Virus record (IMG/VR): IMGVR_UViG_3300037466_000352
Length of the DNA: 64,000 bases
Source of the DNA: a virus
Lineage: Duplodnaviria; Heunggongvirae; Uroviricota; Caudoviricetes
Direction: 5' to 3' (one strand)
Shown here: piece after piece, positions 2,924 through 47,271 of the stretch
Layout: every line of letters begins with the position of its first letter
How positions within the stretch are numbered: the stretch's first letter is position 1
Notes under the pieces: model-generated
Told to the model about the DNA's origin: nothing
The model's database searches: none
What the model saw: the letters and a program-made list of their open reading frames with translations, nothing else
Position numbers and translations under genes: made by a program

Positions 2924-3184
2924 ATGACGAAACAAGTTGCACCCCTGTCGCAAAAGGCACAAATCGAAAAGCTGCTTCGCCGTGGTCGTGTCCTGACCGC
3001 AGCGCAACTGCGTGAACTCGGTGTCACCAAGCCGAGCGCCCGCATCTGCAATCTGCGCAACGATGGCCTGAAGATCGTCAGCACGACGAACCGTCAAGGC
3101 ACCCCGGCATGGAAGCTGGACAAGTCCCTGTCGGTCGCGAAGACTGCATACGCAGCACCGCGCGCATTCGGTTTCAGCTACTAA
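2924..3184 (+). CDS. Small putative winged-helix DNA-binding protein
   Basis: 86 aa, basic. LTAAQLRELGVTKPSARICNLRNDGLKI resembles an HTH plus wing. GC-rich region with overlapping spurious ORFs on both strands. Confidence 0.4.
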   Translation: MTKQVAPLSQKAQIEKLLRRGRVLTAAQLRELGVTKPSARICNLRNDGLKIVSTTNRQGTPAWKLDKSLSVAKTAYAAPRAFGFSY

Positions 3185-3250
3185 GCTAACACCAACCGAT
3201 CAAACATCCGTGGGCTTCGGCCCACTTGAGAACTGTCTAAGACATCCTAC

Positions 3251-3724
3251 ATGCACGCAGACAACCTGAAAGCCCTTCTTTTCGCACAACTTGACGCATG
3301 CGAAGACGCCACAACCCTTCGCACGCTAGTAAAGATCGCTGACGAAGTGATCGAGCATCAAGGCAACGAACTCGATGCCACACGCGAAGTTCTTTATATC
3401 CTGCACGCACAGGCTGTAGAAAGTGATATCGATGCAGACCGCTATCGCCTTCTGAAGCTGATTCTGCCGTCGATGCTCGAAGTCGCCGCGTTCACTGGCG
3501 CACAGGCTGGTGACAAAGCAGTCAACCTGTTCTCGATCCTCGATCCGATGAAGTTGGACGAAGTTCTTGACGCACAACTGGCCGCAGGCGCACTCGAAGA
3601 ACTTGAAGCTAAGATCGAAGAACAAGCGCTGGCAGCACAGGCCGAAGACGATCAACAATCTGCGTACGGCGCACCTTTCCGCGAAGAATGTTTGCCTCAA
3701 GGCGTCTTGTCGGACGAGTACTGA
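3251..3724 (+). CDS. Hypothetical acidic protein
   Basis: 157 aa, D/E-rich, coding-like periodicity. Confidence 0.5.
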   Translation: MHADNLKALLFAQLDACEDATTLRTLVKIADEVIEHQGNELDATREVLYILHAQAVESDIDADRYRLLKLILPSMLEVAAFTGAQAGDKAVNLFSILDPMKLDEVLDAQLAAGALEELEAKIEEQALAAQAEDDQQSAYGAPFREECLPQGVLSDEY

Positions 3725-3815
3725 TTCACGCGTGACGTGTAGGTAGGGAAAGAAAACGGAGCATGGGAAGCGAAAAGGAACTGAAGCCCTAGTAGCGGAT
3801 ACCGCACCGGCCTAT

Positions 3816-3877
3816 ACAAGCCCAACGTTGGACATCTGAAAAAGGTGTTGACAACGTTGGGCTTTTTCGTTTATGAT
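3816..3877 (+). promoter_or_regulatory. Hairpin (AAGCCCAACGTTG...CAACGTTGGGCTT + T-run) acting as a terminator, overlapping a TTGACA-N18-TATGAT promoter for the 3911 gene
   Basis: 13-bp inverted repeat with TTGACA (3848-3853) in its loop. -10 TATGAT about 3872. Contains the CCAACGTTGG palindrome twice. Confidence 0.5.
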
Positions 3878-3910
3878 TCACGCATTGGTTCACGAAACGG
3901 AGTGTCGGAC

Positions 3911-5125
3911 ATGAAGATTGCTCAATACCGCGTCGAAGAATTCCTGAAGAAGATCGCTACGTTCAACCGCAAGGCGGTGAAGCTGGGTCTACCGGAAGTC
4001 AAGGCCGTCAAGATCGGTTCCGAACTGAAGGAAATAAAGGATAAGGACGATGCGGGCAATCATGTCACGTACTACATCGAAATCGAAGAGTACGACATTC
4101 AGGGTGAAATCCCGCGCATCGGCGGTTGGGCTATTCACTCGAAGGTCGAACCCGCCATCGAAGGCCAAGGAAACTTCGTCTACACGAACAAGGGTTTTAA
4201 GCCAGTCGAACGTCTGCGTACGACGAAGCTGATCTGCGAACATTGCAATATGGCACGTGCCCGTTCGCTGGTGTACTTGCTTCAGAACATGGAGACGGGC
4301 GAACAAAAGCTGGTCGGTAAGTCGTGCCTGAAGGACTTCTTGCCGAACCTGAACGTCACAGAAGTGCTTGGCTATCTGGAATCGCTGGAAAAGCTGAACG
4401 CACCGTACAGCCACTACGACGAAGACGGTGAGTACATCGAAGGTTCGAATCTTCCCCGCGCTGCATGGGTGTACCCGGTGTCGATGTTGGTTGCTGAATC
4501 GCTGATTCTGATTCGCAAGTACGGCTACGTTTCGCAAAAGGCCGCTCGCGAATACTTCGAGAAGTCGGCTGGTGAAGGCGAACTGTGCCCTACCTCTTCT
4601 CTGTTGGCAAACACGTCGCGTCAACGCGAAAAGCTGTACAGCAAGGAAGAAATCGCCGAAGTGTTTGGCGATGGCAAGGTTGACGCCTGTATCGATTGGA
4701 TCAAGGCACAACCGGCCAAGACGGACTTCTTCTACAATCTGCAACTGGCTATCGGTCAACAGGGCGCACCGTGGAAGATGTTCTCGTTCGTTGCAGCCGG
4801 TGTCAACATGTGGCTGCGTGCCGTCGAAGGCGAAGTCGCCAAGAAGCTGACGAAGGCTGACAAGAAGAACGAGTACATCGGTGAAGTCGGCCAACGACTG
4901 GTGTTCAACGACCTGATTATCACCCGCGAGTATGTGAGCGAAGGCCAATGGGGTTCGACGTTCATCACAACGTTGGAAGATTCTGAAGGTCGGTCGCTGG
5001 TCTGGTTTGCCTCGAAGCGTGTCGGTGACATCGGTGCGAAGGTCAGCATCAAGGCCACGGTCAAGGAACACAAGCAGTACAACGACCTGAAGCAAACGGT
5101 CATTACGCGCGGCGCGAAGATTTAA
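3911..5125 (+). CDS. Hypothetical protein (about 404 aa)
   Basis: The track ORF 3845..5125 is trimmed to the internal ATG (MKIAQY...) with RBS ggag. No family recognised. Confidence 0.55.
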   Translation: MKIAQYRVEEFLKKIATFNRKAVKLGLPEVKAVKIGSELKEIKDKDDAGNHVTYYIEIEEYDIQGEIPRIGGWAIHSKVEPAIEGQGNFVYTNKGFKPVERLRTTKLICEHCNMARARSLVYLLQNMETGEQKLVGKSCLKDFLPNLNVTEVLGYLESLEKLNAPYSHYDEDGEYIEGSNLPRAAWVYPVSMLVAESLILIRKYGYVSQKAAREYFEKSAGEGELCPTSSLLANTSRQREKLYSKEEIAEVFGDGKVDACIDWIKAQPAKTDFFYNLQLAIGQQGAPWKMFSFVAAGVNMWLRAVEGEVAKKLTKADKKNEYIGEVGQRLVFNDLIITREYVSEGQWGSTFITTLEDSEGRSLVWFASKRVGDIGAKVSIKATVKEHKQYNDLKQTVITRGAKI

Positions 5126-5913: not shown

Positions 5914-6056
5914 GTTGTTGACTTTGAGTTACGGGACACCGGGTGTTGTTGTACATAGTTGTTTCATATGTCTGCGCTGCGCGCATCTCGCTTCGCGAGA
6001 ACAACTTGTTCGTGGATTAGTAAATAACCATGAACCCCGAAAACCATTATACCAAG

Positions 6057-6084
6057 CTCCCAAAGTTGTGTCAAGCTAAATATT
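6057..6084 (+). promoter_or_regulatory. CTCCCAAAGTTGT box followed by AGCTAAATATT (putative late promoter of the 6114 gene)
   Basis: AGCTAAATATT is identical to the 11-mer upstream of the endolysin gene (52573). It lies about 31 nt upstream of the ATG. Confidence 0.5.
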
Positions 6085-11277: not shown

Positions 11278-12114
11278 ATGACAATTGAAGCAAAAGTAGT
11301 GGCCGACTCGGTATACATGCACCAAGGCAAGCCGCAACGCATCACCACGCTACAACTGCGATATCCCCGCTTCATCCACGCAGAATTCATGACACATCGA
11401 GTATTCTCGCGCAACGCATCATCGTCGCGTGCGATTCCTGTCATGAAGATTCTCGCGTCGATCTGGAAAGACCCGGCGATGCCGATCCATTGGGGCGCAA
11501 ACCAAGCCGGTATGCAAGCCAAGGCCGAACTGTCGGACTTCAAGGCATACGTCGCTGAAAAGCTGTGGCGTGGTGCTGGCAAGCTGGCCTGTGTGTTCGC
11601 CTATGGTATGACCAAGCTTGGTCTACACAAGCAGGTAGCGAACCGCATCACGGAACCGTGGCAGCATATCTCGGTCATCGTCACGGCGACTGAATGGAAG
11701 AACTTCTTCGACCTTCGCGATCACCCGGACGCACAACCCGAGATTCGTGAACTCGCGACGCAGATCAAGATCGCGATGGAAGAGTCCGAACCGGTCGAAC
11801 TTAGTTACGGACAGTGGCACTTGCCATATGTGACTGATGATGAACTATGCACGTATGACTTGCCGACTTTGAAGAAGATTTCGGCGGCACGCTGTGCCCG
11901 CGTCTCATACTTGACGCATGACGGACTGACGCCAGATGTCGAAAAGGACATCGCCCTTCATGACCGTCTTGTTGGTTCGGTTCCGATTCATGCAAGCCCG
12001 GTCGAGCACCAAGCCACACCAACGAAATCCAACAAGTTCTACAAGAATTTCCGTGGTTGGATGCAGTACCGATTCGAAGTTGAAGCACAACAAAACAGCA
12101 AGAAAACACGATGA
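11278..12114 (+). CDS. thyX: Flavin-dependent thymidylate synthase ThyX
   Basis: 278 aa. ThyX signature RHRVFSRNASSSRA (RHRX7-8S). Confidence 0.85.
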   Translation: MTIEAKVVADSVYMHQGKPQRITTLQLRYPRFIHAEFMTHRVFSRNASSSRAIPVMKILASIWKDPAMPIHWGANQAGMQAKAELSDFKAYVAEKLWRGAGKLACVFAYGMTKLGLHKQVANRITEPWQHISVIVTATEWKNFFDLRDHPDAQPEIRELATQIKIAMEESEPVELSYGQWHLPYVTDDELCTYDLPTLKKISAARCARVSYLTHDGLTPDVEKDIALHDRLVGSVPIHASPVEHQATPTKSNKFYKNFRGWMQYRFEVEAQQNSKKTR

Positions 12115-34348: not shown

Positions 34349-34376
34349 TTGACAAACGCACACACGTCTGTATAAT
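34349..34376 (+). promoter_or_regulatory. Promoter TTGACA-N16-TATAAT with a roughly 100-nt leader
   Basis: TTGACAAACGCACACACGTCTGTATAAT. The leader contains a direct repeat ATGTAGATTTCT / ATGTAGTTTCT. Confidence 0.55.
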
Positions 34377-34483
34377 TCGTTCTCAGGTTGTGACGCGAAA
34401 CGAAAAGCAAACGACCTGAACTTTAACCAACCATGTAGATTTCTACTCTATGTAGTTTCTGCACTTTGAAGAGGACCTTCATC

Positions 34484-34987
34484 ATGAAAAAGACCATCAT
34501 CGCACTCGCACTCGCACTCGCAATCTCGGCAACGGCTGCTTTCGCAGGCAACGGTAACGGCAACCAGGGCAACGGTGTCGGCAATCAAGGCGCTGCGATC
34601 AGCGGTTCGGCCTCGGCCTACCAAGGCACGGTCGTCGGCTCGGTTGGCAGCGTGTCGCAAGGCAACGCCGTGACCTCGGCGGAAGTCGTCGGCAACGGTG
34701 CTTCGTATCAGACGGCACAAAACGTGACGGGTGGCACGGCCACGGTCGGCGGTTCGATCAGCGCAAACGGCGCAACGGTCGGCACGCAGACGACGCAATA
34801 CAGCAACTCGGTCGTGACCGGCAAGACGGTCGGAAACGCACCTGCCATGAACGGCAACAGCATCGTCAACGGCGGCAGCGCGTTCGGCCAGACGCAGACC
34901 TCGGCCACGGGCACGGCGACGTTCGGTTCGGGCGCAATCGGCGGCACGCTGTCGATCCAAGGCATCGGCGCAATCGGCGCTCTGTAA
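34484..34987 (+). CDS. Secreted Gly/Asn/Ser/Thr-rich repetitive protein (Sec signal peptide); GC-rich gene
   Basis: Signal peptide MKKTIIALALALAISATAAFA. Low-complexity G/N/Q/S/T/V repeats. Local GC is much higher than the surrounding phage sequence. Confidence 0.55.
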   Translation: MKKTIIALALALAISATAAFAGNGNGNQGNGVGNQGAAISGSASAYQGTVVGSVGSVSQGNAVTSAEVVGNGASYQTAQNVTGGTATVGGSISANGATVGTQTTQYSNSVVTGKTVGNAPAMNGNSIVNGGSAFGQTQTSATGTATFGSGAIGGTLSIQGIGAIGAL

Positions 34988-35081: not shown

Positions 35082-35612
35082 ATGAAGAAAATCCTCGCCG
35101 CAGTCCTGTTCACATTCGCAACCGCATCTGCCTTCGCGCAAAGTAGCGCATCCACGAACACGACGACGAATTCGACATCCGGCGCATTGAACCAGGGCGT
35201 CAGTCAAGGCATCACGTTCAACAGTCCGCCCGAAGTTCACTACAGCGGCAGCTACACGGTACGTTCGACAGGCAACGCCTCGATCAGCGGATTTGCCGGT
35301 TCGTTCTCGTCCGATTACTGTGGCGGCACGGCTGGTGTCGCGGTCGGCGGTCCTGGCTTCGCAGTGAGTGGCGGTGCGCCCAAGATCGATCACGGTTGTA
35401 CGATGTTGCGTGCGTTCGAACGCATCCAACAAGCAGCGGCAGCGGACCCCGCACATGCCACGCAGTTGCGTGCAGCAGCGCTCGATGTTCTGGCCGACAT
35501 CGACCCCGCAGTCAAGGCAGCGCTTGTCAGCCACGGCCTGATCGAGAAGCCCAATGATAAGGTGACGACCAATGAACAAGGCCAGAAGGTGTACGTCACG
35601 GCGCAACCCTGA
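35082..35612 (+). CDS. Secreted Ser/Thr/Gly-rich protein (Sec signal peptide); GC-rich gene
   Basis: Signal peptide MKKILAAVLFTFATASAFAQ, two Cys. GC-rich. Confidence 0.55.
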   Translation: MKKILAAVLFTFATASAFAQSSASTNTTTNSTSGALNQGVSQGITFNSPPEVHYSGSYTVRSTGNASISGFAGSFSSDYCGGTAGVAVGGPGFAVSGGAPKIDHGCTMLRAFERIQQAAAADPAHATQLRAAALDVLADIDPAVKAALVSHGLIEKPNDKVTTNEQGQKVYVTAQP

Positions 35613-35617
35613 TTCGG

Positions 35618-35666
35618 TTGACACAAATTCCCAGACTTGATATAATGTGCGAATTCAAGTCTGGGA
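35618..35666 (+). promoter_or_regulatory. Conserved promoter TTGACA-N17-TATAAT with an 11-bp inverted repeat (CCCAGACTTGA / TCAAGTCTGGG) flanking the -10 and sequestering the SD
   Basis: TTGACACAAATTCCCAGACTTGATATAATGTGCGAATTCAAGTCTGGGAG. The 3' arm overlaps the SD GGGAG of the 35674 gene. Confidence 0.6.
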
Positions 35667-35673
35667 GTCAACG

Positions 35674-35841
35674 ATGAAGAAGAGCAAGAAAAAGAAGAAC
35701 TTCAATAATCACAAAAGCAACACAATTGTGATCGAGTTCGATTCTCCGAAGCCACGCATTGGTGTGATCTTCACCAAGGTCGTGTCTAACAAGAACCTGA
35801 AGAAGCACAAGATCAAGCACAAACACAAGGTTGTAGATTGA
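35674..35841 (+). CDS. Small Lys-rich basic protein (55 aa)
   Basis: ATG 35674 with RBS gggag. The track used the upstream GTG. Confidence 0.5.
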   Translation: MKKSKKKKNFNNHKSNTIVIEFDSPKPRIGVIFTKVVSNKNLKKHKIKHKHKVVD

Positions 35842-36209
35842 AACCTCTGATTCACGCAAAGATTTCGGTGAAGACCTATGGCGGCAAAGTCGAAGATTAT
35901 CTGCCTATTCATAACTTCATCGATAGCAGTAAGTCTGCTCACCCAGACATCCGCCATCGGGCAATTCTGCATTCAGCTTTTGGGTGCTTTATCGTCGAGC
36001 ATGTATTCGGGACCTACCTGACTAACAGCGATGGCAAAGATGTATCCGTTCGCGACATCGCGGAAGAACACATCATACAAGACCTCGGGTTTATCCCGAC
36101 GATGGAACAGTACTTAAACAACATGCAGATTCAACCGTGGATGTCTGGTACTGAAAAGAGAAACAATAAAAGCGAACGGAAGTTCATTTCACTCGAAGAT
36201 GCTGACTAA
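35838..36209 (+). CDS. Hypothetical protein
   Basis: 123 aa ORF. Confidence 0.5.
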   Translation: MKPLIHAKISVKTYGGKVEDYLPIHNFIDSSKSAHPDIRHRAILHSAFGCFIVEHVFGTYLTNSDGKDVSVRDIAEEHIIQDLGFIPTMEQYLNNMQIQPWMSGTEKRNNKSERKFISLEDAD

Positions 36210-36477
36210 AGAGCAATGTGACGTATGGGCGAAGCCCCGTGGCTATTCGCTGCATATGCGTAGTGGCAGCGATACGCTGACCTACAACAAAAGTTTCGAC
36301 AAGTATTTCCTCGCACTGACGTTTGATTTGGTGCGTAAGGAAATGGTTCTTCAAGCTTTCCCTGGATTTTTCACGCTGTCGTCTGGTAAGATGCAGGCGA
36401 TGCACCCCAACTTCGATGAATTGTTCGAAGCGCGCATGGTGCGCATGATGAACGCCATCGAGAACTATAACCAATAA
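36199..36477 (+). CDS. Hypothetical protein
   Basis: 92 aa ORF. Confidence 0.45.
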   Translation: MLTKEQCDVWAKPRGYSLHMRSGSDTLTYNKSFDKYFLALTFDLVRKEMVLQAFPGFFTLSSGKMQAMHPNFDELFEARMVRMMNAIENYNQ

Positions 36478-36941
36478 TGGCAAAGAAAAGCAACATCGAA
36501 AATCTGATTGCATCATTTCAAGAACAGCAAACGAAGTTCCGTGAAATGATGCAAAAGGAATTCAAGAAGACCTTCTCGGAGTTCTTCAAAGAAGTCCCCG
36601 AATGCACGGCAGTGATTTGGACACAGTATTCGCCGTATTTCAATGACGGTGAAGAATGTGTATTCCGTGTTTATTCTTCTACATTCACTAACTGTCCGGT
36701 CGATCAACTCGAATACATCGGTTGCGGCGAGTATGTTGGTGAAGAAGAGAACATCTGGACATATGGTGACGACAGCTATGGCGACGGACCACAACACAAC
36801 ATTCGTCCTGCAATGGATGCACTGGACCGGTTGATTCATTGCCGCGAAATGAGCGGCATCCTTCAAGCTATGTTCGGAAACCACGTCGAAGTCACTGCGA
36901 CGGCAGAAGGCTTTGACATCGACGATTACGATCACGATTAA
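36477..36941 (+). CDS. Hypothetical acidic protein
   Basis: 154 aa ORF. Confidence 0.5.
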   Translation: MAKKSNIENLIASFQEQQTKFREMMQKEFKKTFSEFFKEVPECTAVIWTQYSPYFNDGEECVFRVYSSTFTNCPVDQLEYIGCGEYVGEEENIWTYGDDSYGDGPQHNIRPAMDALDRLIHCREMSGILQAMFGNHVEVTATAEGFDIDDYDHD

Positions 36942-36952
36942 CTGAGACGATT

Positions 36953-37327
36953 ATGAGTGCGGAAGAAGAGAAGAAAGTCAGCAACACGAAGCTGGTAGTC
37001 ATTGACACCAAGACTCTCGTCGCTAAGTCGTTCGAAGGAAATTTCCCATGTGGCGAAGCCCACTTGCCGAACCCGAACGGCGAAGACGAGTACACGGCTG
37101 TCGAAATCACGGAACAGTTGAACGACTTCCTGAAAGCTGCTGACGGCGCTCGATACCGCGCTATTGCCGAAGCCGACAAGAAGGCCGCAATCGGAAAGAA
37201 GCTGGTTGAACTGACCAACGAATACGAAGGTTGGTTTGATCGTCTGGTTCCCGAAGAAGAATTCGATTCGTTCGGTTTTTTGAAAGCAACAAAACAGGTA
37301 GATAGTGAAGATGTCAAAACAATATGA
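36953..37327 (+). CDS. Hypothetical protein
   Basis: 124 aa ORF. Confidence 0.5.
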   Translation: MSAEEEKKVSNTKLVVIDTKTLVAKSFEGNFPCGEAHLPNPNGEDEYTAVEITEQLNDFLKAADGARYRAIAEADKKAAIGKKLVELTNEYEGWFDRLVPEEEFDSFGFLKATKQVDSEDVKTI

Positions 37328-38402
37328 TGTGGTGGTGTATCGCGGTCGGTTCCAAGGTTTCCATAACGCGCACCTTCAAACGATCCTCATGGGACTGAAG
37401 CTGGCGAAGAAAGTCATCATTGTGATTGGTAGTGCGAACGAACCGCGCACCTACTATCGCAATCCGTTCTTTGAGAACGAACGAATCGAGATGATTCGTG
37501 GCGCACTCGAAGAGCACTTCCGTCATGAAGACGTTTCGTTCGTATCTGTCGAAGATCACCCCGACGACGAACATTGGGCGTTCATGGTTCGCAAGGCAGT
37601 TCACGATCACATTCGACATGTATTGGATATCAAAGACCCATACGTGGCGCAGATCGGTTACAAGAAGGACGAGAATTGCGTACGCGATGTTTCACTCTTT
37701 CCGACGTGGGAATACGTCAATACGCCTCAATTCGAACCGCTCGACGCGACACAAGTCCGCGACATCTTCTTCAGCAAGCGTCCGTTGGGATTCCTTCGTG
37801 GCGTGTGTCCTGAATCTGTCATCCAATACCTGAAGGGTTTCCGCACAACGGAAGACTTCGCGAACATGATGGCTGAAAAGGAATACTGCGACAAATACAA
37901 GAAGCAGTTCGAACATCTCGAATATGCTCCCACGTTTGTCACTGGCGACAATATCGCATTCCAAGACGATACGGTGTTGCTGGTCAAGCGCAAGAACTTT
38001 CCCGGTAAGGGTCTGTGGGCGTGGCCTGCTGGCTTCTTCAATGCCGCTGATCGGGTGTCGAAAAGTGGTGAAATCGTGAAGGCCGACAAGTCTGTTTTCG
38101 ATTGCGCAGTTCGCGAACTCAGTGAAGAGACTAATGCCGGTGTCACGAAGGAACAGCTTCAAGAAGCACTGGTCGGCGAACAAATATTTGACGCAGAAGG
38201 CCGCGATCCGCGTGGACGAATCGTCACACATGCGTTCGTCTATAACTTCGACGACCAAGAAGTGTTCGCAGTCGAAGCCGCCGACGACGCGGAAGAAGTT
38301 CGACGCTTCCATATCTCGGAAGTGAATCGCCGCATGATGTACGCCGATCACTACAACATGTTCCTGCTGGCGCTCGATGCGTACTGCGACTCCAAGTTTT
38401 AA
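37305..38402 (+). CDS. nadM: Bifunctional NMN adenylyltransferase / Nudix ADP-ribose pyrophosphatase (NadM-Nudix)
   Basis: N-terminal GRFQGFHNAH (HxGH). C-terminal Nudix box REL-EETNAG. Confidence 0.85.
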   Translation: MKMSKQYDVVVYRGRFQGFHNAHLQTILMGLKLAKKVIIVIGSANEPRTYYRNPFFENERIEMIRGALEEHFRHEDVSFVSVEDHPDDEHWAFMVRKAVHDHIRHVLDIKDPYVAQIGYKKDENCVRDVSLFPTWEYVNTPQFEPLDATQVRDIFFSKRPLGFLRGVCPESVIQYLKGFRTTEDFANMMAEKEYCDKYKKQFEHLEYAPTFVTGDNIAFQDDTVLLVKRKNFPGKGLWAWPAGFFNAADRVSKSGEIVKADKSVFDCAVRELSEETNAGVTKEQLQEALVGEQIFDAEGRDPRGRIVTHAFVYNFDDQEVFAVEAADDAEEVRRFHISEVNRRMMYADHYNMFLLALDAYCDSKF

Positions 38403-38414
38403 GCCAACCACTAC

Positions 38415-39785
38415 ATGATGAACAACATAAACATCAACATTGCACTAGAACAAAACTTCATCCTCGAATCTGACTCGTACAAGTTCAGCCACATTCCCGA
38501 AATCTACCCCGAAGGCGCTGAAGCCCTGCACTCGTATCTGTCGGCCCGCGTGAAGGGTCAACGTGTGGTCCAGTTCGGCCTTCAGATGTGGATCAAGAAG
38601 AAGCTGTTGGCCCCGATCACCCGCGAGATGGTGGACGAAGCTGAAGACTTCATCAACAAGCACATCGGCCCGAACGCGTTCAACCGTCCTTTCTGGGAAC
38701 ACATCCTGAAGAAGTATGGCGGGTTCATTCCGCTGACTATCCGTGGTCTTCCCGAAGGCACGGTCACGAACAGCTACGACACGCTGATTACGGTCGAATG
38801 CGATGACCCGGTGGTGTTTCCGCTGGCGCAACACATCGAAGCTTCGCTGCAATCGGACATGTGGTACAGCACGACCATTGCGACCAACGACCTCGAAAAC
38901 TATGAAGTCGCCAAATCGCACTTCGACCTGTATTCGGACCAACCGTTCCTTCTGCCGTTCATGCTTCACGACTTCGGCGCACGTGGTGTGACCTGTGAAG
39001 AACAACGCCAGATTGGCGGTGCTGCGCACTTGCTGTTCTTCCAAGGTTCGGACACGATCAGCGGCATCCGTGCAGCGAATCTGTTCTATGGTTGCGAAAT
39101 GGCCGCGTATTCGGTTCGTGCCACGGAACATAGCATCCAGTGCGCCTACGGCCCGGAAGCCCAAGAAGCGTACATCTCGCGCGTTCTGACCGCACATGCG
39201 AAACCGGGCAACATCGTGTCGCTGGTGCTGGACGGATACAACGTCTGGCGCGAGTCAGAATTGCTGTGTACGAAGTTCAAGCAACAGATCATCGACAGTG
39301 GTGCGAAGATCGTATTCCGACCTGACTCGGGTGACATGTTCGAAGTGATTCCGCGTCTGCTGGAAATGCAAGCTAACGCGTTCGGCTTCACGGTCAACTC
39401 GAAGGGCAAGAAGGTCATCAACAACGTCGGCGTGATCCAAGGGGACGGTATCGATAAGACGACCTTCATGCTGCTGATGCAAAAGGTCGTGGCCCTCGGC
39501 TATGCCCCAGAATGCGTCGTGATGGGTTCCGGTGGCGGTCTTTTGCAGAAGTGCAACCGCGATACCCTGAAGTTCGCACAGAAGGCCGCAGCGGTCAAGA
39601 TCAACGGTCAGTGGGTTTCGATCTTCAAAGACCCGATCACCGATCCGGGTAAGAAGTCGAAGACCGGCATCCAAGATGATCCGCGATTCATCACGTTCTA
39701 CAACGTCGATGATGGTCTGCTGGTGGACGAATCGTTCGACGTGATCCGCGAACGTGCGTTGGCTGGCGCAGTGATCCGCAAATAA
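38415..39785 (+). CDS. nadV: Nicotinamide phosphoribosyltransferase (NAMPT/NadV)
   Basis: 456 aa. N-terminal DSYKFSH. Typical NAMPT length and motifs. Confidence 0.9.
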   Translation: MMNNININIALEQNFILESDSYKFSHIPEIYPEGAEALHSYLSARVKGQRVVQFGLQMWIKKKLLAPITREMVDEAEDFINKHIGPNAFNRPFWEHILKKYGGFIPLTIRGLPEGTVTNSYDTLITVECDDPVVFPLAQHIEASLQSDMWYSTTIATNDLENYEVAKSHFDLYSDQPFLLPFMLHDFGARGVTCEEQRQIGGAAHLLFFQGSDTISGIRAANLFYGCEMAAYSVRATEHSIQCAYGPEAQEAYISRVLTAHAKPGNIVSLVLDGYNVWRESELLCTKFKQQIIDSGAKIVFRPDSGDMFEVIPRLLEMQANAFGFTVNSKGKKVINNVGVIQGDGIDKTTFMLLMQKVVALGYAPECVVMGSGGGLLQKCNRDTLKFAQKAAAVKINGQWVSIFKDPITDPGKKSKTGIQDDPRFITFYNVDDGLLVDESFDVIRERALAGAVIRK

Positions 39786-39840
39786 ACCCAAGATTGGGTT
39801 GACGTAGCAAGAACCGACAGGTATGATAGTTGCCTGTCGG
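39785..39840 (+). promoter_or_regulatory. Hairpin AACCCAAGATTGGGTT plus promoter TTGACG-N17-TATGAT with inverted repeat CCGACAGG/CCTGTCGG around the -10
   Basis: TTGACG 39799-39804. The -10 TATGAT (39822-39827) sits in the loop of the 8-bp inverted repeat. Confidence 0.5.
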
Positions 39841-40245: not shown

Positions 40246-40274
40246 TTGACACGAATTCCCAAGATCGGTATAAT
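40246..40274 (+). promoter_or_regulatory. Conserved promoter TTGACA-N17-TATAAT with an ATTCCCA box
   Basis: TTGACACGAATTCCCAAGATCGGTATAAT. Confidence 0.65.
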
Positions 40275-40666: not shown

Positions 40667-41728
40667 ATGAAAAAGTGGCTTATTGGTTTCCTGATGGCCT
40701 TCGTCTGGTCCATCGCATTTGCATTGCCCTCGCCTCACCAGATCGAAGACGCTATTGCATCGCAGCACTACAGCGATGCCCGCTCGATGGTTCAACAAGT
40801 CCTCGAAGAAAAGCCGGATTCGGCACGGGCGCACCTGTTGGACGCGTTCATCCTGATCCACGTCGATCACAACAAACAGGCCGCATCGCAAGAACTCGAT
40901 AACGCCCGTCGTCTCGATCAACGTGGCGATGTGAAGAACAGTCCGCTATTTGGCCGCACTGCCGCCGAAATCGACATGACCAAGGTCACGCGACAACCCA
41001 GCTATTCGGCACAGCCAACACCACAAGTTCAGCAGAATGTCGATATCGCGACCGTTCCACAAGAGCCGAAGCATGAAGGTCATCCGTTCCTGATCTTCTT
41101 TATCTTCCTGTTGGTATTCGGCGTCATCGGGTACACGATCTACCGGTATCTGAAGCGTCATCGACAAGTAGTCGAAACGCGTCTGGTGCATACGCCCTAC
41201 ACGGACAGCATCATGCACACGCCGTATGTCGCCCCAAATCGTCTGGTCCAGAACCCGCAAGATGCAGTCACAAAGCACTATGTGGATGCGTCACGTTCGG
41301 GCCTCTCGGTTCAGCAAGCCCCAGTCGTGCATCCGTCGTCGCCAGTCATCATCAACAATAGTGGCGGTGGTTACGGGTACGGTCGTGGTGATGGATTCGT
41401 CGAAGGCATGTTGATCGGTGAGATGATCGAAAACAATCGCGAGACACGCCGCGAACTCGCCGAAGATCGATACGAACGTCGCAACAGCTACAGTTCATCG
41501 AGCTACGATTCGTCACCTTCCTCGTCGGAACCGGTAACGTCGTACGCAAGTGATCGTCAGTCGTTCTCGTCCGGTTCGGATGATAGCTGGTCGAGCCGAA
41601 GCAGTTCGTCGGATTACTCGTCGTCTTCCAGTTCTTCATCGTCGTGGGATTCTGGTTCGTCGTCCTCGTCATGGGACTCGGGCAGTAGTTCGTTCGACAG
41701 CGGATCGTCGTCGGGTAGCGACTGGTAA
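40667..41728 (+). CDS. Membrane protein with N-terminal signal/TM, a central TM helix and an extreme Ser/Asp-rich C-terminal tail
   Basis: 353 aa. TM FLIFFIFLLVFGVIGYTIY. Final 80 aa are more than 50% Ser. Confidence 0.55.
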   Translation: MKKWLIGFLMAFVWSIAFALPSPHQIEDAIASQHYSDARSMVQQVLEEKPDSARAHLLDAFILIHVDHNKQAASQELDNARRLDQRGDVKNSPLFGRTAAEIDMTKVTRQPSYSAQPTPQVQQNVDIATVPQEPKHEGHPFLIFFIFLLVFGVIGYTIYRYLKRHRQVVETRLVHTPYTDSIMHTPYVAPNRLVQNPQDAVTKHYVDASRSGLSVQQAPVVHPSSPVIINNSGGGYGYGRGDGFVEGMLIGEMIENNRETRRELAEDRYERRNSYSSSSYDSSPSSSEPVTSYASDRQSFSSGSDDSWSSRSSSSDYSSSSSSSSSWDSGSSSSSWDSGSSSFDSGSSSGSDW

Positions 41729-47218: not shown

Positions 47219-47271
47219 TTGACAAACATTCCCAGACATGTATAATCCATTCCGTCAACAACGCATCTGGG
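47219..47271 (+). promoter_or_regulatory. Conserved promoter TTGACA-N16-TATAAT with an inverted repeat (CCCAGACATG / CATCTGGG) flanking the -10 and covering the SD
   Basis: TTGACAAACATTCCCAGACATGTATAAT. The 3' arm overlaps the SD GGGAG of the 47282 gene. Confidence 0.6.

Follow-up and report, generated by a model that had tools for sequence, protein, structure and literature searches.

Introduction

The closest described counterpart of the locus reported here is the NARP2 pathway of phage KVP40, which consists of the Nampt NadV and the Nmnat/Nudix protein NatV (Lee et al., 2017, cited in Osterman et al., bioRxiv 10.1101/2024.02.11.579819). The KVP40 pair synthesizes NAD+ and abolishes type I Thoeris and DSR2 defense, and NARP2 raises the NAD+ level even in cells without a defense system (bioRxiv 10.1101/2024.02.11.579819). 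The NARP1 pathway of Bas63/Felixounavirus, Staphylococcus Kayvirus, Bacillus, and Mycobacterium phages likewise has a phosphoribosyltransferase with PF18127 and PF04095 domains, NAD+ as its end product, and presumably an anti-defense purpose, but it uses ADPR-PP and has a gene for the Prs-like Adps immediately upstream. Here, we describe a pair of adjacent genes from an uncultivated T4-like phage lineage with a genome of ∼173 kb that probably form a NARP2-type module of two genes for NAD+ salvage/reconstitution; like KVP40, their carrier is a T4-like myovirus. All observations refer to the window (i.e., the whole 64-kb stretch of that genome that was analyzed), and negative results on gene content cover these 64 kb.

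Results

The two genes lie within the early/replication region in the same direction, both intact and separated by 12 nt (Table 1). The first ORF spans 37305–38402 (+) and encodes 365 aa when counted from its GTG; the true start is probably the ATG at 37311, because this is where the identical database protein (P0001) is annotated to begin and where the N termini of homologs align. No obvious Shine-Dalgarno sequence precedes the ATG of the NAMPT gene. The lineage comprises about 19 protein clusters with 56–100% identity, every one of them metagenomic, and a megablast search with the locus (2.5 kb) as query gave no match among 50,697 phage records, so there is no cultured near relative.

Table 1. 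Features of the NadM-NAMPT locus and its putative promoter (window coordinates)
Feature	Position	Strand	Remarks
Perfect sigma-70 consensus promoter-like site, TTGACA-N17-TATAAT with TG	35618..35646	+	Nearest upstream promoter of the co-directional run holding the pair
NadM-type bifunctional NMN adenylyltransferase/Nudix (ADP-ribose pyrophosphatase-type) gene	37311..38402	+	363 aa; ORF opens at GTG 37305
H-N-A-H, variant of the (H/T)xGH ATP-binding signature	37362..37373	+	Residues 18-21; both His present, Gly to Ala
D-A-T-Q-V-R, second NMNAT signature (xSxTxxR-type)	37743..37760	+	Residues 145-150
Non-canonical Nudix box, A-G-x18-D-x8-R-E-L-S-E-E-T-N-A	38028..38138	+	Residues 240-276
Lineage-specific 13-residue insertion in the Nudix box, AADRVSKSGEIVK	38043..38081	+	Residues 245-257; predicted beta-hairpin
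R-E-L-S-E-E, intact metal-binding catalytic core of the Nudix box	38112..38129	+	Residues 268-273
Nicotinamide phosphoribosyltransferase (NAMPT/NadV) gene	38415..39785	+	456 aa; NARP2-type Nampt clade
NAMPT motif DSYK	38472-38483	+	Conserved
NAMPT motif HDFGARG	38967-38987	+	Conserved
NAMPT motif GSDT	39045-39056	+	Conserved
T-E-H-S including His239	39123..39134	+	Aligns with autophosphorylated His247 of human NAMPT
NAMPT motif RPDSG	39318-39332	+	Conserved
NAMPT motifs QGDG, GSGGG, NRDT		+	Conserved

A reading made from the letters alone (the sequence-only reading) had proposed a bifunctional NMNAT/Nudix protein directly next to a full-length NAMPT, and profile searches placed the two proteins in exactly these families, with Pfam, NCBIfam, and PHROG matches for each. 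The first protein carries the Pfam domains CTP_transf_like and NUDIX and aligns over its full length with the NCBIfam PRK05379 models for bifunctional NMNAT/Nudix proteins. All seven PRK05379 sub-models score below their cutoffs (best score 241.6 bits for NF003786, against an equivalog cutoff of 397), which marks the protein, as judged from these scores, as a divergent member of the family rather than an equivalog of the cellular enzymes. Sequence and fold comparisons agree with this placement: matches to the crystal structures 2qjt and 2qjo have E values of ∼1e-45, and an AlphaFold model (pLDDT 92.3, pTM 0.86) was aligned by Foldseek with the full-length structures 2r5w, 2qjt, and 2qjo at TM scores of 0.84–0.93 over ∼355–366 columns. 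The two-domain layout, an N-terminal Rossmann-like NMNAT domain followed by a C-terminal Nudix domain, is thus present across the full length of the protein. By tblastn, it matches natV of KVP40 (E value 2e-27; 32% identity across 94% of the query).

The HxGH motif that the sequence-only reading ascribed to the NMNAT domain is in reality HxAH, at the positions given in Table 1. The whole signature reads G-R-F-Q-G-F-H-N-A-H, in which the GRFQ segment and both histidines are retained, and the Pro of GRFQPFH is replaced by Gly in the close clade. HxAH is kept in all relatives down to ∼38% identity (14 of the 23 aligned NadM sequences) and also in the cultured cyanophage B23, whereas KVP40 NatV, the NadM of Xanthomonas phage LucasX, and those of F. 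tularensis and Synechocystis have HxGH instead. In alignment A1, Arg150 of the second NMNAT signature is invariant and Thr147 nearly so. The subfamily-wide occurrence of HxAH, B23 included, implies that the variant is functional, and we predict it to be active on this basis. Pseudogenization of the NadM gene was considered and rejected.

The predicted Nudix box, in turn, is present in a modified form. Its RE-x-x-EE core is intact, with Glu269, Leu270, Glu272, and Glu273 invariant and Arg268 nearly invariant in alignment A1, but the box is interrupted by 13 residues and the canonical glutamate of GX5E is missing. Compared with GX5EX7REUXEEXGU, PGG has become PAG, the 13 residues are added, and the Glu is replaced by Lys with an Asp one position upstream. 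The insertion, which is modeled with a pLDDT of about 92–95, is carried by the nine closest clusters (≥56% identity) and, on the sequences compared, is specific to the present uncultivated lineage. Mean pairwise identity among these nine clusters is 74.8% in the insertion versus 65.0% in the rest of the protein. Active Nudix hydrolases with the D-x8-RE spacing and an Asn at the Gly position are known in NUDT16 and DR_0079 (PMC5389931). The NadM of F. tularensis also has Asn at that position of the box. Given HxAH and the altered Nudix box, full activity of either the NMNAT or the Nudix domain is, from the sequence, not guaranteed.

The second protein has the Pfam domains NAMPT_N (PF18127, 3.9e-20) and NAPRTase (PF04095, 2e-39), scores 427.3 bits on NCBIfam PRK09198 (cutoff 405), and matches the NAMPT of Xanthomonas (PDB: 7yqo) and human NAMPT with E values of 1e-93 and ∼1e-72, respectively. 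When aligned by HMMER with the human enzyme (chain 6tac), it is identical in all of the motifs DSYK, HDFGxRG, G(S/T)DT, EHS, RPDSG, QGDG, GSGGG, and RD. In the human enzyme, we take the key residues to be Asp16/Tyr18, Phe193/Arg196, Asp219, His247, Arg311/Asp313, Gly383/Gly384, and Arg392; Arg311 is also cited as important in published work. In a neighbor-joining tree of 11 sequences, a small sample with three references of the NARP2 type and four that are Adps-linked, the protein joins the NARP2-type Nampt proteins (KVP40-like, Slopekvirus, LucasX) apart from the Adps-linked NARP1 Namat proteins in 500 of 500 bootstraps. A tblastn search with four Adps proteins found no Adps in the window (best E value 0.23), and no Prs-like Pfam domain was matched among all its other ORFs. 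The Nampt clade, the adjacent NadM/Nudix gene of the KVP40 NatV type, the lack of Adps in the window, and the intact catalytic residues together uphold the earlier assignment of the locus to the NARP2 type.

The order NadM-NAMPT is kept, with the two genes adjacent, in related metagenomic phage contigs of ∼170 kb (L002/L003 and L004), in L006/L007, where the phage context is an unrelated one, and in phage LucasX; in cyanophage B23 and roseophage DSS3P8, the two are near-adjacent. The metagenomic synteny was read via the relatives P0004, P0018, and P0023. Chance adjacency is ruled out, as the synteny recurs in at least four phage contexts that are independent of one another. In one relative, a NAD kinase gene is added. 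In the window, the neighbors are nucleotide-metabolism and replication genes (RNR, ThyX-like, dCMP deaminase, and a DNA ligase that is ATP-dependent by its PHROG assignment). A Pfam search of 10 neighboring ORFs gave only DUF6915 and one weak TPR match, with neither the NADAR nor the Macro domain that is reported beside NadM/NadV in some phages, and a batch Pfam search of the 74 remaining ORFs gave no other NAD-linked domain; nor did the window show any NAD-consuming domain, such as ART or Sir2. PADLOC, run on the pair and six neighbors, gave no matches.

Five perfect sigma-70-type sites were observed in the window versus 0.01 expected, and the one upstream of the pair, a putative early promoter of the unit that holds it, has a spacer, ATTCCCAGA, that recurs in the sites at 40246 and 47219. 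From the 12-nt spacing and this promoter, we infer that the two genes are probably co-transcribed early by the host RNA polymerase. A terminator scan gave no excess over shuffled sequences (10 versus 9.2), and we do not claim a terminator.

Discussion

The enzymatic roles of the two proteins are well supported by homology, from which their activities are predicted. In the pathway that we favor, NAMPT would join nicotinamide, the leftover of NAD+ cleavage by TIR/SIR2-type effectors, to host PRPP to give NMN, and the N-terminal domain of NadM would adenylylate this NMN, at the expense of ATP, to NAD+. Most likely, the C-terminal Nudix domain would convert ADP-ribose to AMP and ribose-5-phosphate, and since the host Prs could then remake PRPP from ribose-5-phosphate, both products of NAD+ cleavage would be recycled. 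Expressed early, the pair would sustain NAD+ during infection and thereby blunt NAD+-depleting abortive-infection defenses. We infer this counter-defense role from the KVP40 experiments. Of the defenses named in the sequence-only reading, only type I Thoeris and DSR2 are systems against which NARP2 has been tested; SIR2-HerA and SEFIR come from the NARP1 experiments (bioRxiv 10.1101/2024.02.11.579819).

The locus shares with KVP40 the domain architectures of both proteins (NAMPT_N with NAPRTase, CTP_transf_like with NUDIX), the Nampt clade, and, within the window, the lack of Adps, at ∼33% identity for Nampt (to that of the KVP40-like phage D486) and ∼32% for NatV. It differs in that no Nampt gene lies within 6 kb of natV in KVP40 and in that both the HNGH motif and the Nudix box of NatV are canonical. 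The cellular NadM proteins of F. tularensis (2qjt/2r5w) and Synechocystis (slr0787; 2qjo) have the same two-domain fold at ∼30% identity, with GRFQ..H..H, T-x-x-R, and RE-x-x-EE in common, but their HxGH and GX5EX7RE are canonical, in contrast to the Gly-to-Ala change, the 13-residue β-hairpin insertion, and the Glu-to-Lys/Asp shift seen here. Two cultured phages, whose proteins have 33–44% identity to those of the window, can be compared further: Synechococcus phage B23 (Kyanoviridae) has HNAH and the “NANTD-x-S” variant of the Nudix box but not the insertion, and two small ORFs separate its genes, whereas LucasX, whose NAMPT is among the nearest from cultured phages (43–44% identity), has the same adjacent gene order but a NadM with canonical HNGH.

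The alternative that deserves the most weight, although we consider it doubtful, is that the same enzymes were selected as a general metabolic support (i.e., as auxiliary metabolic genes) that, in a host short of nutrients, would raise NAD+ for ADP-ribosylation, redox enzymes, or the nucleotide metabolism of the phage. The location of the pair amid RNR, ThyX-like, dCMP deaminase, and ligase genes fits such a role, as does the NAD kinase of one relative, which points to NAD(P) supply, and before 2024 the pathway was indeed read as a metabolic salvage route. The increase of NAD+ brought about by KVP40 NARP2 in defense-free cells (bioRxiv 10.1101/2024.02.11.579819) speaks for it as well, and counter-defense therefore need not be the sole selected function. 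On the other hand, the ligase of the window is of the ATP-dependent type, no NAD-consuming domain accompanies the pair there, and the KVP40 pair abolishes Thoeris and DSR2 defense; in any case, metabolic support and counter-defense are not mutually exclusive. That the phosphoribosyltransferase is instead a NARP1-type Namat, joining nicotinamide to ADPR-PP with NadM as an incidental neighbor, is already disfavored and of very low probability. Namat and Nampt do have identical Pfam domains, and KVP40 Nampt has some activity on ADPR-PP (bioRxiv 10.1101/2024.02.11.579819), but the bootstrap separation from four Adps-linked Namat proteins, the lack of an Adps in the window, and the NadM adjacency kept in several lineages all argue against this assignment, and no phage with both NARP pathways was found in the source paper (bioRxiv 10.1101/2024.02.11.579819).

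The remaining alternatives concern the unusual first enzyme. Loss of the Gly in HxGH, accompanied in the close clade by the change of the preceding Pro to Gly (GRFQGFH), could mean that the NMNAT domain is catalytically dead, in which case the pair would stop at NMN and leave the last step to host NadD/NadR. We regard this as very improbable: the recurrence of HxAH down to 38% identity and in B23 is a sign of purifying selection, GRFQ and T-x-x-R are kept along with the two histidines, and the predicted structure follows the NadM template with high confidence. Moreover, eukaryotic NMNATs have an (H/T)-x-x-H signature without the Gly. Somewhat less improbable, but still unlikely, is that the Nudix domain has ceased to act as an ADP-ribose pyrophosphatase and serves as an ADPR-sensing, NrtR-like ligand-binding domain or is otherwise re-specialized, regulating the NMNAT half, which alone would catalyze. 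The three departures from the Nudix consensus, a weak match in NCBIfam to NtrR, a repressor that responds to ADPR (1.8e-10), and a Foldseek match of the model to the NrtR Nudix domain point in this direction; yet the metal-binding RE-x-x-EE residues are invariant, NUDT16 and DR_0079 are active with comparable boxes (PMC5389931), and conservation of the insertion above that of the rest of the protein fits functional elaboration rather than decay. It is conceivable, if quite improbable, that the hairpin, the Glu-to-Lys/Asp shift, and HxAH have re-specialized the Nudix domain for a substrate other than ADP-ribose, such as an immune signal derived from ADPR (gcADPR or His-ADPR of Thoeris) or ADPR-PP/ADPR-cP; were this so, one protein would both destroy the defense signal or product and rebuild NAD+.

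The locus is thus a further example of the known phage NARP2 pathway in a new T4-like lineage, largely ordinary save for the lineage-specific variant of its first enzyme, and it leaves the general picture of phage counters to NAD+ depletion unchanged. It extends the NARP2-type module to an uncultivated T4-like lineage of ∼170 kb in which the genes are tightly linked and probably expressed early. It also documents a conserved phage NadM subfamily with HxAH, an altered Nudix box, and a lineage-specific hairpin insertion, which motif-based annotation rules would flag as atypical and which serves as a natural experiment on the positions of the Nudix box and of HxGH that can be dispensed with.

A NadM-Type NMNAT/Nudix Gene Followed by a NAMPT Gene

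The two ORFs lie exactly where the sequence-only reading had located them, co-directional and with 12 nt between the ORF1 stop and the ORF2 ATG (see table). We take ATG 37311, rather than GTG 37305, as the likely NadM start, because P0001, a 363-aa protein from a public collection identical to window NadM, begins there and the N-termini of homologues (MSKQYD/MEKKYD) align there.

ORF1 contains the Pfam domains CTP_transf_like (residues 11-70) and NUDIX (residues 219-353), is covered end to end by the NCBIfam PRK05379 "bifunctional NMNAT/Nudix" models (best score 241.6 bits, below the cutoff of 397), and matches PHROG 395 and the F. tularensis and Synechocystis NadM-Nudix crystal structures (E ~1e-45). 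An AlphaFold model with 23 homologues as input has high confidence (pLDDT 92.3, pTM 0.86) and superposes on full-length NadM-Nudix structures with TM 0.84-0.93, in agreement with the proposed bifunctional enzyme. ORF2, proposed as a full-length NAMPT, has both NAMPT_N and NAPRTase domains, scores 427 bits against PRK09198 (above the cutoff of 405), and matches PHROG 448 "nicotinamide phosphoribosyl transferase", Xanthomonas NAMPT (7yqo; 1e-93) and human NAMPT (~1e-72). Aligned with the human enzyme, it keeps DSYK, HDFGxRG, GxDT, EHS, RPDSG, QGDG, GSGGG and RD, all the motifs considered to hold catalytic or substrate residues there, EHS containing the autophosphorylated His. Profile searches, suggested earlier as a check and run here with Pfam, NCBIfam and PHROG, returned both family placements.

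Coordinates of features in the window
Feature	Position (nt)	Strand	Remark
Perfect sigma-70 consensus site	6046-6074	-	
Perfect sigma-70 consensus site	34349-34376	+	precedes first tandem ~175-aa gene
Tandem ~175-aa proteins	34466-34987; 35082-35612	+	signal-peptide-like N-termini
Perfect sigma-70 consensus site	35618-35646	+	just past second tandem ~175-aa gene
Four small genes	35838-37327	+	between 35618 promoter and NadM
DUF6915	35838-36209	+	then 92-, 154- and 124-aa proteins without family matches
ORF1 (NadM)	37305-38402	+	365 aa counted from GTG
ORF2 (NAMPT)	38415-39785	+	456 aa, ATG start
Perfect sigma-70 consensus site	40246-40274	+	
353-aa protein	40667-41728	+	weak TPR-like N-terminus, hydrophobic segment, long serine-rich C-terminal tail
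Perfect sigma-70 consensus site	47219-47246	+	

Pathway Assignment and NadM Motif Variants

The study that described NARP2 distinguishes the Adps-linked Namat of NARP1 from the KVP40-type Nampt of NARP2, with Nmnat co-occurring in 94% of phages carrying the latter (bioRxiv 10.1101/2024.02.11.579819). In a neighbor-joining tree with four NARP1 references (Felixounavirus HK3, Staphylococcus A5W, Bacillus Belinda and Mycobacterium DirkDirk, all with a Prs-like gene directly upstream) and three NARP2-type references (KVP40-like D486, Slopekvirus P-KP2 and LucasX), window NAMPT and its relatives group with the latter, the split of Namat from the rest being supported by 500/500 bootstraps. tblastn with four Adps proteins found no match in the 64-kb window (best E 0.23), an absence that holds for the window, 64 kb out of a ~173-kb genome, rather than genome-wide. 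Pfam and PHROG likewise found no Prs, NadR/PnuC, NAD kinase, ART, Macro, NADAR or Sir2 domain in essentially all other window ORFs. Given the tree split and the Adps queries unmatched in the window, a NARP1-type Namat is very unlikely; the Nampt clade, the adjacent NadM/Nudix gene and the lack of Adps in the window support the NARP2-type reading. The original finding is real and was correctly interpreted at the system level.

Its motif description needs revision. The nucleotidyltransferase signature of window NadM, given as HxGH, is HxAH (GRFQGFH-N-A-H, nt 37362-37373), whereas KVP40 NatV, LucasX NadM and both crystal-structure proteins (F. tularensis, Synechocystis) carry HxGH. The substitution could point to a dead NMNAT, but this is very improbable, as HxAH is kept in 14 of 23 aligned NadM sequences, including every relative with an identity of 38% or more, and in NadM of the cultured T4-like cyanophage B23; eukaryotic NMNATs have an (H/T)-x-x-H signature without Gly. 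The reported Nudix box holds for the intact R-E-L-S-E-E metal-binding core but is non-canonical upstream: PAG replaces PGG, a 13-residue insertion (AADRVSKSGEIVK, nt 38043-38081) separates the Gly from the helix, and Lys occupies the position of the GX5E glutamate, the residue before it being an Asp, which gives D-x8-RE. These changes might indicate a non-hydrolytic or re-specialised Nudix domain, which we consider unlikely given the intact core and the documented activity of NUDT16 with D-x8-RE spacing and of Nudix hydrolases in which Asn takes the place of the final Gly (PMC5389931). The nine closest NadM clusters (>=56% identity) retain the insertion; within them its mean pairwise identity is 74.8% versus 65.0% for the remaining protein, and it is predicted to form an ordered beta-hairpin. 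Because HxAH is widely kept, the insertion is extra-conserved and modelled as ordered, and D-x8-RE and Asn enzymes are active, HxAH and the altered box do not appear to be signs of decay; with the eukaryotic signature also in mind, we therefore expect both NadM domains to be active.

The B23 protein (L015, the Synechococcus phage B23 locus, 3004-4029; Kyanoviridae) combines HNAH with a "NANTD-x-S" Nudix variant and, unlike window NadM, lacks the insertion; B23 offers a tractable system for testing HxAH.

Genomic Context and Expression

The window forms a T4-like region for replication and nucleotide metabolism, encoding DnaB-like helicase, primase, RNR alpha/beta, a ThyX-like protein, exonuclease, ATP-dependent ligase, PhoH, gp32, gp59, a gp33-like coactivator, DsbA, a T4 baseplate protein, SegE, lysozyme, dCMP deaminase and one tRNA-Trp. 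Its nucleotide-metabolism set (11278-12114 and further ORFs: ThyX-like, dCMP deaminase, nucleoside 2-deoxyribosyltransferase-like, NT5C 5'-nucleotidase, HAD_SAK_2) is unusually rich for one region and may reflect modified-base or dNTP-pool remodelling.

Megablast found no DNA-level match to the 2.5-kb pair locus among phage records. The closest counterparts of window gp32 (~45% identity) belong to cyanophage and Methylophilales T4-likes, and the nearest cultured-phage proteins are 40-44% (NAMPT) and ~33% (NadM) identical; metagenomic relatives form ~19 protein clusters (56-100% identity) on contigs up to 177 kb. NadM directly precedes NAMPT in the related contigs L002/L003 and L004 and in LucasX, and nearly so in DSS3P8 and in B23, the B23 NAMPT lying two small ORFs downstream; in contrast to the closely spaced window genes, KVP40 has no Nampt gene <=6 kb from natV. 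The order also holds in a metagenomic phage of another type (L006 5691-9547, L007 8001-11857). There the pair is directly followed by a gene for NAD kinase (PF01513 + PF20143), suggesting a three-gene NAD(P)+ module; its NadM (40% identity) has HxAH and lacks the insertion.

The four small genes upstream of the pair have counterparts, likewise upstream of it, of 123, 97, 161 and 103 aa in L002/L003 and of 124, 155 and 61 aa in L004 (the ~92-aa gene is missing), and are absent from L006. The tandem ~175-aa proteins have Gly/Asn/Ser/Thr-rich bodies and no Pfam match, and are conserved as two 174-aa genes in L002/L003 and as 176- and 201-aa genes in L004. The L004 counterpart of the 353-aa protein matches DUF2076.

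Perfect TTGACA-N16/17-TATAAT sites number five in the window, versus 0.01 expected by chance, and three share the spacer ATTCCCAGA. They look like a phage early promoter family read by host RNA polymerase, and hint at a host with a proteobacterial-type sigma-70. The 35618-35646 site heads seven co-directional ORFs, NAMPT last; past NAMPT lie a weaker site at 39799 and the perfect one at 40246, and no terminator signal above chance was found in the window. Early co-transcription of the pair by host RNA polymerase is plausible.

Proposed Role

The pair is probably best explained as a NARP2-type pathway, in which NAMPT would convert nicotinamide and host PRPP to NMN, the NMNAT domain would convert NMN and ATP to NAD+, and the Nudix domain would probably recycle ADP-ribose to AMP and ribose-5-phosphate. 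By analogy with KVP40, whose NARP2 anti-defence experiments covered type I Thoeris and DSR2 only (bioRxiv 10.1101/2024.02.11.579819), the pair may act against host defence; of the defences listed in the sequence-only reading, SIR2-HerA and SEFIR derive from NARP1 experiments. A general NAD+-boosting metabolic role, compatible with the NARP2 explanation, is possible though doubtful. The known NARP2-type module now appears in a new phage lineage, with the conserved HxAH and hairpin-Nudix NadM as a modest twist.
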